A stretch of DNA of 64,000 nucleotides from Escherichia coli (GCF_045037415.1 NZ_CP173438.1), one strand, 5' to 3'; numbered from the stretch's first letter, positions 35,201-41,200 are shown. Program-made: the numbers.

Positions 35201-38200
35201 TCGGCGGTTGTCGCTGCCTGTTGTGCGCTACCAGGCGATACGCTGGAAAATATCGCATCTGCCTGTCACTGGATGAAACAAGCCGGAGAACGCGCAGTCG
35301 CCAGAAGCGAGGGGCCAGGCAGTTTTGTTCCACATTTCCTTGATGCGCTCTGGCAATTGACGCAGGAGGTGCAGGCATGAAACGAATTAACGCTCTGACG
35401 ATTGCCGGTACTGATCCGAGTGGTGGTGCGGGGATTCAGGCCGATCTTAAAACCTTCTCGGCACTTGGCGCTTATGGTTGCTCAGTTATTACTGCACTGG
35501 TGGCGCAAAATACCCGTGGTGTACAGTCGGTGTATCGCATTGAGCCTGATTTTGTCGCCGCCCAGCTCGATTCGGTGTTCAGCGATGTGCGAATCGACAC
35601 CACTAAAATCGGTATGTTGGCGGAAACCGATATTGTTGAAGCGGTGGCAGAACGGTTGCAACGTTATCAGATCCAAAACGTGGTACTCGACACCGTTATG
35701 CTGGCAAAAAGCGGCGACCCGCTGCTTTCACCTTCGGCAGTTGCCACGCTACGCAGTCGATTATTGCCACAGGTTTCATTAATAACGCCAAACTTGCCCG
35801 AAGCAGCCGCCTTGCTCGACGCGCCACACGCGCGCACCGAACAGGAAATGCTGGAACAAGGGCGATCGCTGTTGGCGATGGGCTGTGGCGCAGTGCTAAT
35901 GAAAGGTGGTCATCTGGATGATGAGCAAAGCCCGGACTGGCTGTTTACCCGCGAGGGTGAACAACGGTTTACCGCACAGCGCATTATGACCAAAAACACT
36001 CACGGCACTGGTTGTACGCTCTCTGCGGCGTTGGCTGCACTGCGCCCGCGCCATACAAACTGGGCTGACACCGTACAGGAGGCAAAAAGCTGGCTTTCAT
36101 CGGCATTAGCCCAGGCCGACACGCTGGAAGTTGGTCACGGTATTGGTCCGGTTCACCACTTCCACGCCTGGTGGTGAGCACCGTACTATAGCTGCTTTGG
36201 TTATTGTCAGCCTTTGGTGCTGACATTCAGGGATGAAACCAATGCAGTTGAGAATCACCAGTCGAAAAAAATTCACCGTTTTATTATGCGCTCTTGGGCT
36301 AATTTCCATCGTTGCAATTTATCCGCGTCAGACGGTGAATTTTTTCTATTCGACAGCAATTCAGATTAAAGACTACATCCACTTCTACGGTTATCGCCCG
36401 GTTAAATCTTTCGCTATTCGCATTCCTGCCAGTTACACCATTCACGGAATAGATGTTTCGCGCTGGCAGGAGCGGATCGACTGGCAGCGGGTGGCAAAAA
36501 TGCGCGACAACGGTATCCGCTTACAGTTTGCTTTTATTAAGGCGACGGAAGGCGAAAAGCTGGTGGACCCCTATTTTTCGCGTAACTGGCAACTAAGCCG
36601 GGAAAATGGCCTGCTGCGCGGGGCGTATCATTATTTCTCCCCGTCAGTATCCGCTTCAGTTCAGGCGCGATTATTTCTGCAAACGGTGGATTTCTCACAA
36701 GGCGATTTCCCTGCGGTACTGGACGTAGAAGAGCGAGGAAAATTATCGGCAAAAGAATTACGCAAGCGGGTAAGTCAGTGGCTAAAAATGGTCGAAAAAC
36801 GTACGGGAAAAAAGCCGATTATTTACTCAGGAGCCGTTTTTTATCACACCAATCTGGCGGGCTATTTCAATGAATATCCGTGGTGGGTGGCTCACTATTA
36901 TCAACGTCGCCCGGACAATGACGGCATGGCCTGGCGCTTCTGGCAGCATTCCGACCGTGGACAGGTCGATGGCATTAATGGTCCGGTGGATTTTAATGTG
37001 TTTAATGGCACAGAGGAGGAGTTGCAGGGATTCGTTGATGGGATTAAAGAAACGCCTTAAATAAGAAGCAGTGATATACTCCCACCAGATTCCCCGGCAG
37101 GAAAAAGACAAATGGAACAAGCGCATACCCAGCTGATTGCCCAACTGAACGAGCGTATTTTAGCGGCGGATAACACGCCGCTTTATATTAAGTTTGCCGA
37201 AACGGTAAAAAATGCCGTGCGCAGCGGGGTGCTGGAGCATGGCAATATTTTGCCCGGTGAGCGTGATTTAAGTCAGTTAACCGGCGTTTCGCGCATTACG
37301 GTGCGCAAGGCGATGCAGTCGCTGGAAGAAGAGGGCGTGGTGACGCGTTCGCGTGGTTACGGCACGCAGATCAACAACATCTTCGAATACTCGTTGAAAG
37401 AAGCGCGAGGTTTTTCTCAGCAGGTGGTGTTGCGCGGGAAAAAGCCCGATACGCTATGGGTTAACAAGCGTGTCGTGAAATGTCCCGAAGACGTCGCGCA
37501 GCAGCTGGCGGTCGAGGCAGGAAGTGATGTTTTTTTGCTTAAGCGTATTCGCTATGTCGATGAAGAGGCGGTATCGATTGAGGAATCGTGGGTTCCGGCA
37601 CATTTAATTCATGATGTTGATGCCATCGGGATTTCTCTTTATGACTACTTCCGCAGCCAGCACATTTACCCACAACGTACGCGTTCCCGCGTTAGCGCCC
37701 GGATGCCGGATGCCGAGTTTCAGTCACATATTCAGTTAGATAGCAAAATACCGGTGCTGGTGATCAAGCAAGTGGCGCTTGACCAACAGCAACGGCCTAT
37801 TGAGTACAGCATCAGCCACTGTCGCAGCGATCTATACGTTTTTGTGTGCGAGGAGTAGTTCCTCGCGCGTTGGCGCACAATCACCGCCCCGATGCCCGAC
37901 AACCCACGACGCCACTGCATTGCCCAGTAATACGGCATCCGCCAGTGGCAGACCAGAGGCCAGCCCGGCAAGTACGCCGCCGGCATGACTGTCGCCCGCC
38001 CCAATGGTGTCTACAACTTGCGTTGGAAATGCCGGAATGCAGCCAGAAGCGTCGTTGCTGAAATACCATGCGCCCTCTTTATCGAGACGAACGATCAACG
38101 GCGCGGCAAATTTCTCCTGCCATTGCTTGCCAAGTGTTGTTATCTCTGCGGATAAAGCAAAACGTTCGGCGGCAATCTCAGCCTCTTGACGATTGAGTGA

Positions 38201-41200
38201 CACTAAAGGTCGACAGGCCATGATCCGCGCCAGTAATGCATCCGGGATATCGCCAATACGTGGGCCAAAATCGATAAATGGCGTCACGTCTTGCAGCTCT
38301 TCCAGCCATTCCACTAACAATTCGCCGCAGGGCGAGGCCAGTTGATAACCGGAAAAATAGAGCAGGCTGCCAGGCGCAACGGTTAATCGCGCCAGCCATT
38401 CGCGATTCCACTGATTTTCCACACCACTGAATGACATAAAAGTGCGTTCGCCATCCGGCTCAACCAGCGCCAGACACCAGCCGTTATCGCCTTCAGCGTT
38501 ATCGATCAGGCTGATTAACCCCTCTTTCGCCATCCGGTTGCGAATAATCTCCGCCCACACGCCCTGACCGAGCGGCAGGGCATTACCCGCTTCGATGCCG
38601 AGGCGCTTTAACGCCACGGCAATATTCAGTGCGCAGCCGCCAACGTTAACGCTCTGCTGTTTCAGTTCGATATCGCACCCACGCCAGGGCAGAGCGTAAG
38701 CGTCGGCGATCACATCAATGACCGCCGCGCCGACGACCATCACTGGCTGACGCGTGGTTAATTCAGGCAGCAGCGTGTGTAATCGAGCGCCGCTCATATC
38801 GCCTCCCGTTGTTGACGATATTTCGCCAGCGCTGTGGCATAGCGGTTGAAATCAAGCTGATTTACTGCATCCAGTTCCGCCTTTAACGCAGGATCGATAG
38901 CGTTAACGCCATGCAACGCGCCGCAAATTGCCGTCGCCATAGCACCGATGGTGTCTGTGTCGCCGCCAAGGTTAGCGCACAGGACGGCGCAACGGTTCGG
39001 GTCGGTTTGTGCCAGTTCAACCAGCGCAATGGCGCACGGAACGGACTCAATAGTACTGGTACCTGCGCCAACGACCTGGTAAAGCTGTTCGCTGGCGGAT
39101 TCGGTGCCATCGGCATTGCGCACAATTTTCAGCGCAATCTCCAGACGTGCTGCCAGTGAGGCGCTGAAGGTAGTGATGCGTTTTTGTTGAGCATGTCGCG
39201 CAATTGAAGGCAGTGAATCAACAATCGCTGACCAGCTTTCTCCGTCAATGGCACGAGAAATCGCCCATGCGATGACTACCGCCCCCGCAACCGCCAGATC
39301 GGATTTATGGGTCGGGCTGGAGGCCAGCGCCACATCATCAATAAAGGAATCAACATCGCGCGCCGGAAGCAAACAACCTAATGGCGAGACGCGCATCGCT
39401 GCGCCGTTGGTCACGCCGTTATTTTCCAGTTCAGCAACGGGTTTACCGTCGCGAATGGCGTTAAGCGCAATCTTCGAGGTCGGACCTAGTACGTTTTTGT
39501 TAAAGGCGTCGAAACGCAGCGCCCAGCCGAGAATATTACGCCCAATCAGATCCGGATCGATCTTGCCTTCACGTTCCAGTAACGCATCCGCCAGACACAG
39601 CGCCATCGAGGTATCGTCGGTGAATTCGGCGCGGTTAAAATAACAGGCCGCGTTATTCTCCTTTGGCCCAGGCAGAAAACGGTCAATCCAGCCAAAGTGT
39701 GCTTTGACGCGACTGCGCGGCCAAAGCTCGGAGGGCATCCCCATCGCATCCCCTAACGCCTGCCCATAAAGAGCACCGAGAATACGTTCTGTTTTCATTT
39801 AACTTCCCCTTGTGTCAACGCAATATCGCGATCATCGACCTTGATAGCCGTAATTTCGTTGTCGGATTCGCGGAAAAAAATCATGAACAGCACGGCGATA
39901 ATGGCAATCATCACCGCGCCGAAAGTCCACATCCCGGCCCAGTTGAAAGTCAGTCCGTTTACCGGTTCCTGATAAGCGAACATCTTTTCCATCATCACAC
40001 CGCCAAGACGATAGCCGAGCAAACTGCCGAAGCCCTGGCAGCAGAGCGTGATCAGCCCCTGCGCGGCGGTACGCATATGCACGGGAGCTTTTTTATCGAC
40101 ATAGATGTAAGCGGTAACGTAGTAAAAATCGTAACTTACGCCGTGCAGCAAAATACCGAGGAACAGTAACGCGTAGGTGAAATATTCATCCGCACTACCG
40201 TAAATAAAGAAGCCATAGCGGATCGCAGCGGTGACCAGACCAAGCAACAATACCTTTTTGATACCAAAGCGTTTAGTGAAAAACGGCAATGCCAGCATAA
40301 AGAAGATTTCAGAGAACTGGCCGAGCGTCATCCAGCCAGTGGCGTTTTTCATGCCAACTTCGGTCAGATAACCGTTGGCAAAGATGTAATAGAACGCCAG
40401 TGGCATCGCAAACAGGAATGAACAGAAGAAAAAGACGAGGAAGTTTTTATCGCGCAGCAGGATCAGCGCATCCAGGCCGAGCATGACTTTAATATCCATT
40501 TTGCCGGTGCTTTTTGGCGGCGTGTCGGGCAGGAAAAACGCAAACACACCGAGCAGAGCAGAACTTCCGGCGGTAATCAGTAGCGGGATGTTAGTCGGTG
40601 AGATATCGGCATAACCCAGCATTTGCGGCAAGAATCCACATGCCAGACCAGAGGCAATCCAGCCGATAGTGCCCATCACACGAATGCGTGGGAAATCACG
40701 CTCCACATCCGGCACGTTGGCAAAAGCGATACTGTTAGTCAGCGCAATGGTCGGCATATAGGTTAGCGAGTAGGCCAGCAGTAACGGGAAGAACCCGGCA
40801 AAAGTGGTCTGTTGCGCAGCGAAATACATCAGTACCGCGCCAGCGAACATCAATACCGCCAGCACTTTCTGCGCCGAGAAAAAGCGGTCAGTGATGGAGC
40901 CAACCAGAATTGGCGACAGGATCGCCGCAATGGCGGTACAGGCATACGACCAGCCAATTTCTCCGGCACTAAAACCGCTTTTACTTAACCACAACCACAA
41001 TGGCACAAACCACGCGCCCCAGATAAACCATTCAACAAACATCATGAACGACAGCTTTGCTGTTGTTTTCATCTTTTAATTCCTTCATGACAGGTAATGT
41101 AAGGTACGCGATGACAATACCACTTAGTAATACCTTTTAAATACCTTTGCGGTGAAAACTTGACCGCGGTAACATTTTTTCTGATGAATCGAGCCAACAG

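Follow-up and report, generated by a model that had tools for sequence, protein, structure and literature searches.

The yegTUV operon of Escherichia coli and its repressor YegW: a possible module for the uptake and breakdown of a non-canonical riboside

What is the substrate of yegTUV, a three-gene operon that Escherichia coli keeps nearly silent through the product of the adjacent gene yegW? The locus lies in a 64,000-nucleotide (nt) stretch of E. coli DNA (GCF_045037415.1, NZ_CP173438.1; termed here the window, with positions counted from its first letter), and it is already known and partly published. The first gene of the operon, yegT (39795-41072, minus strand), encodes an NHS-family MFS permease. 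It is followed on the same strand by yegU (38794-39798), for a metal-dependent glycohydrolase with the fold of the ADP-ribosylglycohydrolase (ARH) family, and by yegV (37832-38797), for a kinase of the PfkB/ribokinase superfamily, and the open reading frames (ORFs) overlap by 4 nt (ATGA) at both the yegT/yegU and the yegU/yegV junctions. The gene yegW (also ggaR; 37112-37858, plus strand), for a GntR/HutC-type repressor with a UTRA effector domain, is convergent with yegV, and the 3' ends of the two coding sequences overlap by 27 nt (37832-37858, both strands). An initial annotation made from the sequence alone had named these genes with their coordinates and domains, together with the tight overlap of the operon genes and the convergence of yegV and yegW, and all of this is borne out by ORF calls and Pfam matches. 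Several complete E. coli genomes with annotated yegX, yegW, yegV, yegU and yegT match positions 36000-41300 at 100% identity, and of 5426 complete genomes of the species, 5419 contain 80% or more of the region. These five are real conserved genes, with chance ORFs ruled out, and the yegTUV/yegW locus is part of the E. coli core genome.

It is considered moderately probable that yegTUV is a repressor-controlled, self-contained module for the uptake and breakdown of a non-canonical riboside. YegT would import the riboside by proton symport, YegV would phosphorylate the 5'-hydroxyl of its ribose, and YegU would cleave the C1' bond to give ribose-5-phosphate and the free aglycone. YegW would hold the operon nearly silent by means of three direct WGGTATT repeats and a weaker copy inside yegT until released by an intermediate of the pathway, as it is by ADP-glucose in vitro. 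The riboside as substrate, the order of kinase then hydrolase, and the products are what we infer; the gene content, the linkage and fusion of YegU and YegV, the exchange of transporters and the operator motif are direct observations, and the operon structure, the repression by YegW and its two binding regions are known from publication.

The YegU sequence was searched against 1.84 billion representative proteins, 27 relatives were aligned and 79 genome loci were fetched; linkage was counted, among neighbours within 4 kb, in the 72 loci from which a YegU relative was recovered by ORF calling. Of the 72, 62 have a YegV relative, 59 a transporter (of YegT-type NHS, NCS1 or PnuC type) and 48 a GntR/UTRA regulator, and the adjacency of YegU and YegV spans Enterobacterales to Firmicutes and Actinobacteria. 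The transporter itself is exchanged between lineages: YegT-type NHS permeases occupy 31 loci (Enterobacterales, Vibrio and Gilliamella), NCS1-type permeases 15 (bacilli, lactobacilli, Dialister, Parasutterella, Aeromonas and Chloroflexi) and PnuC-type carriers 13, mainly of Clostridia and Lachnospiraceae (150 bits against TIGR01528, cut-off 42). Hydrolase and kinase can also share one polypeptide, as an ARH-PfkB fusion was found in nine of ten long YegU relatives tested, with both domain orders occurring; of three fusion loci looked at more closely, two encode ECF transporters together with a GntR/UTRA regulator, and the third has an adjacent NCS1 permease. The PnuC, NCS1 and ECF families include carriers of nucleosides, vitamins and nucleobases. 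Among 122 flanking genes of the distant loci no extra family recurs, the most frequent being the generic ABC_tran (4 of 122), and a recurrent additional enzyme (deaminase, nicotinamidase, phosphorylase or glycogen gene) was sought amongst them and rejected. As no other enzyme recurs beside the core, the products should enter central metabolism directly, and the module appears, from its gene content, to be complete as transporter, hydrolase, kinase and repressor. The view of these four as one unit, taken in the initial annotation, is strengthened by the linkage and fusion counts and by the transcription of yegTUV as one mRNA of ~3.3 kb, which is undetectable in wild type and ~30-fold up in a yegW deletion (PMC10819704). 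Two variants of the arrangement were also seen. In Vibrio profundi and V. fortis (L025 9047-10324; L026 8893-10239) the yegV and yegW relatives are separated by an extra MFS transporter of the L-lactate/oxalate-formate type (NF049980, 430 bits), which is absent from other lineages. In Brenneria, Edwardsiella and Serratia (L028, L030, L032, L038) a YegU relative occurs without YegT or YegV companions, with an adjoining GntR regulator in Edwardsiella and Serratia and as a 62-residue fragment only in Brenneria; these loci could be a decayed or repurposed form of the module.

The permease narrows the class of possible substrates. YegT matches the NHS family both in Pfam (Nuc_H_symport, PF03825, 1.3e-183) and in TIGR00889 (653 bits, cut-off 446). 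Its crystal structure has been published at 3.1 Å, with a description of the GxxxD protonation motif of transmembrane helix 10 and of Asp315; the residues with which NupG contacts the base are not kept, and no signal was seen in isothermal titration calorimetry with any of uridine, adenosine, cytidine and guanosine (PMC11979927). YegT expressed from a plasmid transported none of gemcitabine, xanthosine, uridine and cytidine (PMC11241209). Canonical nucleosides are largely excluded as YegT substrates, and a permease of this family that neither binds nor transports them points to an unusual riboside. The nucleoside-like substrate of the initial annotation is thereby retained in part: the carriers that replace YegT elsewhere (PnuC, NCS1 and ECF) are of nucleoside/vitamin type, but the canonical nucleosides largely drop out.

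YegU belongs to the ARH family (Pfam ADP_ribosyl_GH, PF03747, 7.5e-66, 223 bits, cut-off 26), and its AlphaFold model (pLDDT 97.3) has the all-alpha ARH fold, with MJ1187 as the best match in the PDB, followed by ARH3 and DraG (TM-scores 0.72-0.82); MJ1187, its closest solved relative, has to our knowledge no known function. Residues T60, D61 and D62 (TDD, 60-62) and D280, D282 and T283 (DxDT, 280-283) are invariant or nearly so among the 27 aligned relatives. E23 pairs with a Glu of ARH3 in a pairwise alignment and lies outside the conserved columns of the 27-relative alignment; in our own reading it is the likely equivalent of the catalytic E41 of ARH3. The active site appears intact, and YegU is a putative dimetal glycohydrolase. 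Fold and metal-site motifs are shared with ARH1, ARH3, DraG, Tri1 and MJ1187, and the aligned Glu with ARH3; fold, metal site and membership of the Pfam family would suit a genuine ADP-ribosyl hydrolase that removes ADP-ribosylation from proteins or nucleic acids in the manner of DraG, ARH1/3 and Tri1. Such a role is nevertheless very improbable. YegU scores far below the equivalog cut-offs for DraG (79 against 337 bits) and Tri1 (68 against 490 bits), it is obligatorily linked, and in PfkB-fused relatives joined, to a sugar kinase within a transporter-kinase unit with a small-molecule importer, and the 122 flanking genes have no ADP-ribosyltransferase family among their 25 commonest Pfam families. 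Moreover, the ARH3 loop FNGKGSYGNGG is replaced in the pairwise alignment by a shortened NNGVTNG, so that the 'KGSY' segment, which we take to contact the ADP moiety, is reduced in YegU. The substrate of YegU is likely to be a small riboside or phosphoriboside and not an ADP-ribosylated macromolecule; sequence and fold searches of solved structures returned no YegU relative with a defined small-molecule substrate. In the known and natural ARH substrates the ribose is phosphorylated at its 5'' position, which would fit a 5'-phosphoriboside as the substrate of YegU.

If YegU acts on a phosphoriboside then the kinase would act before it, and the sequence of YegV bears on this order. YegV is a member of the PfkB superfamily (PF00294, 3.4e-56), and its best NCBIfam match is ribokinase (TIGR02152), at 82 bits against a cut-off of 300; every NCBIfam equivalog match of YegU, YegV and YegW falls below its cut-off, and equivalog assignment was rejected for all three. 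When YegV relatives were aligned with RbsK and PsuK, the positions equivalent to RbsK D255, G254, N187 and E190 were found to be invariant, and YegV retains its catalytic Asp, the anion hole formed by GAGD and the Mg-ATP motif NxxE. Amongst the residues that we take to form the ribose pocket of RbsK (N14, D16, K43, N46 and E143), the YegV family shares only D16 and N46, with V, F or I in place of N14, C in place of K43 and a variable residue at E143. A lid motif specific to the family, DNGWCL-x-EPDGERTF, is conserved. The same module could be run in the opposite order, with YegU freeing ribose and aglycone and YegV then serving as a dedicated ribokinase to give ribose-5-phosphate; this is the less probable order, and still a serious alternative. 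Ribokinases are indeed the top matches of YegV in NCBIfam and among PDB sequences, and the fusion and adjacency of YegU and YegV are compatible with either order, but the ribokinase score is far under the equivalog cut-off, three of the RbsK pocket residues (N14, K43 and E143) are not kept, and E. coli already has RbsK. In addition, uptake by PnuC normally works by kinase trapping, so that a PnuC-type partner suggests an intact riboside trapped by phosphorylation, and HutC-type repressors usually sense a phosphorylated intermediate. It is because of the YegV pocket, PnuC trapping, the 5''-phosphorylated ARH substrates, HutC sensing and the precedent of psuKGT that the kinase-first order is preferred.

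The precedent, E. coli psuKGT (yeiC/yeiN/yeiM) for pseudouridine, is alike in combining a nucleoside-type permease, a PfkB kinase and a glycosidase, and both loci are chromosomal. In that system the kinase PsuK acts first and the glycosidase PsuG then cleaves the 5'-phosphate into ribose-5-phosphate and base, and yegTUV is proposed to work along the same lines. The two systems differ in that the PsuG fold is unrelated to ARH (PF03747), the psu permease is of the CNT type and YegT of the NHS type, and YegV and PsuK are only ~20% identical. A second comparison would fit hydrolase first: the Rus ribose systems of Bacteroidetes likewise combine one or more ribokinases, a permease, a regulator and a variable set of ribose-releasing enzymes, which include nucleoside hydrolases or ADP-ribosylglycohydrolases (bioRxiv 10.1101/574913). 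The Rus loci are, however, SusC/D-based polysaccharide utilization loci with proven ribokinases and induction by ribose, whereas yegTUV is minimal, three genes under the control of a HutC-type repressor, and its kinase is divergent from ribokinase.

YegW has the domains of the HutC subfamily (Pfam GntR, 2.7e-16; UTRA, 3.9e-36) and, under its new name GgaR, has been described as a single-target repressor of yegTUV with one genome peak in chromatin immunoprecipitation on microarrays (ChIP-chip); the peak holds two sites, a strong one within 190 bp 5' of yegT and a weaker one between yegT nucleotides 571 and 869 (probe-5) (PMC10819704). Just 5' of yegT, and within the published high-affinity probe, is the predicted primary operator (41092-41146, minus strand), composed of three direct WGGTATT repeats spaced 11-13 bp (AGGTATT 41146-41140, AGGTATT 41135-41129 and TGGTATT 41122-41116) and two inverted TACCT units (41106-41102 and 41096-41092). 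Of 33 loci from Enterobacterales and Vibrio, 32 have the tandem motif WGGTAYY-N4-WGGTAYT, placed 66-108 nt before the start codon of yegT. When up to three mismatches are allowed, the operator motif has four matches in the window against 0.83 expected, one of them being the exact promoter site. A secondary, weaker operator is predicted inside yegT (TGGTATCAAAAAGGTATTG; 40248-40266, minus strand, yegT nucleotides 807-825), where it falls within the published low-affinity probe-5 (PMC10819704). With one copy at the promoter and a weaker one inside yegT, the motif explains both of the published binding regions and why YegW binds them with unequal affinity. The usual operator of the HutC subfamily is a short palindrome, whereas that of YegW would be made of direct WGGTATT repeats one helical turn apart, and yegW differs further in converging on its target with overlapping 3' ends. 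In other respects YegW is like repressors of the NagR, TreR, PhnF and FrlR type, with a GntR winged helix-turn-helix and a UTRA domain, an adjacent single target and relief by an effector (PMC10819704).

Two further features may contribute to regulation. A CRP-like site, TGTTA-N6-TCAAG (41159-41174, minus strand), ~13 bp 5' of the first operator repeat, forms a block that is conserved in the alignment of upstream regions, and it fits the CRP site reported from SELEX (systematic evolution of ligands by exponential enrichment) in the fbaB/yegT spacer (PMC3105977). A scan for sigma-70 consensus sequences gave no promoter at threshold in the yegT upstream region, and the yegT promoter may for that reason depend on an activator. 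At the other end of the operon, the 27-nt overlap of yegV and yegW, which is also present in Salmonella and Klebsiella, leaves no space for a terminator between the two genes, and the pair has been listed among overlapping transcripts ('excludons') (PMC12288877). Derepression of yegTUV could then give read-through antisense to yegW, lowering the repressor in a positive feedback.

The published model gives the locus a different meaning: yegTUV would act on ADP-glucose or its production, and YegW (GgaR) would be an ADP-glucose sensor that sets glycogen accumulation. The ADP-glucose effector and the glycogen phenotype were missing from the initial annotation, which did not have this work. In gel shifts GgaR is released by 10-100 µM ADP-glucose and not by ADP or glucose, deletion of yegW results in two to three times the glycogen and in poor growth on glucose minimal medium, and a yegV deletion scored as low-glycogen in a genome-wide screen (PMC10819704). 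As an account of what the enzymes do, this model is nonetheless judged unlikely. Enzymatic activity on ADP-glucose is hypothetical, and high glucose induces the operon only ~3-fold in vivo as compared with ~30-fold on full derepression; the gel-shift controls were glucose and ADP only, with ADP-ribose, ribosides and their phosphates outside the published effector set. The comparative evidence runs the same way, as the YegU-YegV pair travels across bacteria with PnuC, NCS1 and ECF carriers, families that transport uncharged ribosides, vitamins and nucleobases, and the 25 commonest Pfam families among the 122 flanking genes include no glycogen-gene family. ARH enzymes, furthermore, cleave ribosyl C1'' bonds and are not known to cleave a glucose-1-phosphate linkage. 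It is more likely that the glycogen phenotype arises indirectly, when a kinase and a putative phosphoriboside hydrolase are overexpressed.

Several points weigh against a riboside pathway as proposed here. A riboside is so far only a candidate substrate for YegT, YegU and YegV, and kinase before hydrolase is a proposed order. The sole reported effector is ADP-glucose and the only reported phenotypes concern glycogen and growth on glucose (PMC10819704), for which the riboside model gives no direct explanation, and the Bacteroidetes ribose-utilization loci pair ARH enzymes with proven ribokinases, which fits hydrolase first (bioRxiv 10.1101/574913). Nothing in the surroundings hints at the aglycone, as neither a riboswitch (20 distant loci) nor a base-processing gene (122 flanking genes) was found; riboswitches were dropped as a clue to the substrate after Rfam searches of those 20 loci at gathering thresholds gave nothing relevant, only the signal recognition particle RNA. 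Searches of the literature, including that from 2024 onward on GgaR and yegTUV, yielded no enzymatic or later functional assignment, and YegV was still listed as an uncharacterized sugar kinase in July 2025 (PMC12506659), in keeping with the statement of the initial annotation that the substrate is not established. Other mentions of yegV in the literature are incidental, namely an in-vitro screen for cleavage by Prc and a critique of machine-learning annotation.

A bolder form of the proposal is that relatives of YegU and YegV make up a pathway for ribosides that are alpha-anomeric or non-standard in some other way, although this is regarded as a long shot. The idea arises because characterized ARH enzymes are alpha-specific, cleaving alpha-ADP-ribosyl-arginine and alpha-NAD+ (NAD, nicotinamide adenine dinucleotide) and not the beta forms (PMC9738213), because YegT ignores canonical beta-nucleosides, and because the carriers that accompany the pair (PnuC, ECF and NCS1) are of the vitamin type. 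The PDB entries 7arw and 7aqm, cited for the alpha-linkage specificity, are among the fold matches of YegU. Candidate substrates may include ribosides of the alpha-ribazole type, carrying cobamide lower ligands; the alpha forms of nicotinamide riboside and of nicotinamide mononucleotide (NMN) from damaged NAD; and nicotinamide or nicotinate riboside, which the transporter families alone suggest. The cobamide lower-ligand idea was searched for with E. coli CobT, CobS and CobU in tblastn against 83 loci and was set aside, as no match was obtained. In one metagenomic locus (L085), which has a GntR/UTRA regulator, an ECF transporter and a PfkB-ARH fusion, an adjacent divergent gene for a histidine phosphatase (184-711, minus strand) has the alpha-ribazole phosphatase CobC as its best NCBIfam match, at 115 bits and below the cut-off of 163; a CobC-like gene is found in none of the other 82 loci.

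The neighbour yegX (36233/36242-37060, plus strand; 36242 is the annotated start, giving 272 amino acids) encodes a membrane-anchored, muramidase-like protein of glycoside hydrolase family 25 (Pfam Glyco_hydro_25, 7.8e-55) that also matches phage endolysin families in PHROG. The initial annotation had counted yegX in the cluster, but in a comparison of 81 loci it stands beside yegW only in that of E. coli (L003), and in Salmonella, Klebsiella, Citrobacter, Enterobacter and other loci yegW abuts thiD with yegX absent. Where the source organism is named, all YegX homologues above ~65% identity are from Escherichia or Shigella; after these come relatives with 45-57% identity in Pedobacter, Solitalea and further Sphingobacteriia, which suggests that yegX was acquired horizontally. 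In E. albertii NBRC 107761 the yegW-thiD junction holds instead an insert with SWIM zinc-finger and DUF6493 genes (L004 2868-6889), and two E. coli genomes also carry such genes there; the junction is a variable insertion point in Escherichia. The phyletic pattern of yegX points to a lineage-specific insertion at this junction, unrelated to yegTUV, and a part for yegX in the pathway (for example in releasing a muropeptide-linked compound) was rejected on the same distribution. The catabolic logic of the initial annotation accordingly holds for yegTUV with yegW and fails for yegX, and the papers of 2024-2025 had escaped it.

On the wider flanks, thiMD lies on one side of the locus and fbaB, divergent from yegT, on the other. 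A thiamine pyrophosphate (TPP) riboswitch 5' of thiM (34461-34557; 71 bits against a gathering score of 54), the sole match in an Rfam scan of the window, marks thiMD as a separate TPP-controlled unit that shares its strand with yegX and yegW. Further 5' of thiMD, at 33152-34369, are a His-rich membrane protein (HEHDHEHHHHDHEDHHDHGHHHHHEH, typical of the RcnA nickel/cobalt exporter) and a small divergent regulator-like ORF, both judged to be unrelated to yegTUV. The mechanically called fbaB ORF (41257-42381) begins 69 nt 5' of the start at 41326 that is implied by 350-residue orthologues, and this 5' extension overlaps an inverted repeat (41252-41290).

The yegTUV operon belongs to the core genome of the best-studied bacterium and is nearly fully repressed, and many gut bacteria (Lachnospiraceae, Dialister, Parasutterella, lactobacilli and Gilliamella among others) have relatives of its hydrolase-kinase pair. 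The operator motif, the swapping of transporters and the exclusion of yegX narrow the scope of the experiments that could identify the substrate. If nicotinamide or nicotinate riboside were that substrate, YegU would be the long-orphan NMN glycohydrolase, and if the alpha- or non-standard riboside reading were true, the ARH fold would for the first time have a role in the catabolism or salvage of a small molecule. An identified substrate would show whether the link to ADP-glucose and glycogen is direct or a side effect, would take three genes off the list of E. coli unknowns, and would place a large branch of the ARH family in metabolism, a family whose only other known role is the reversal of ADP-ribosylation.

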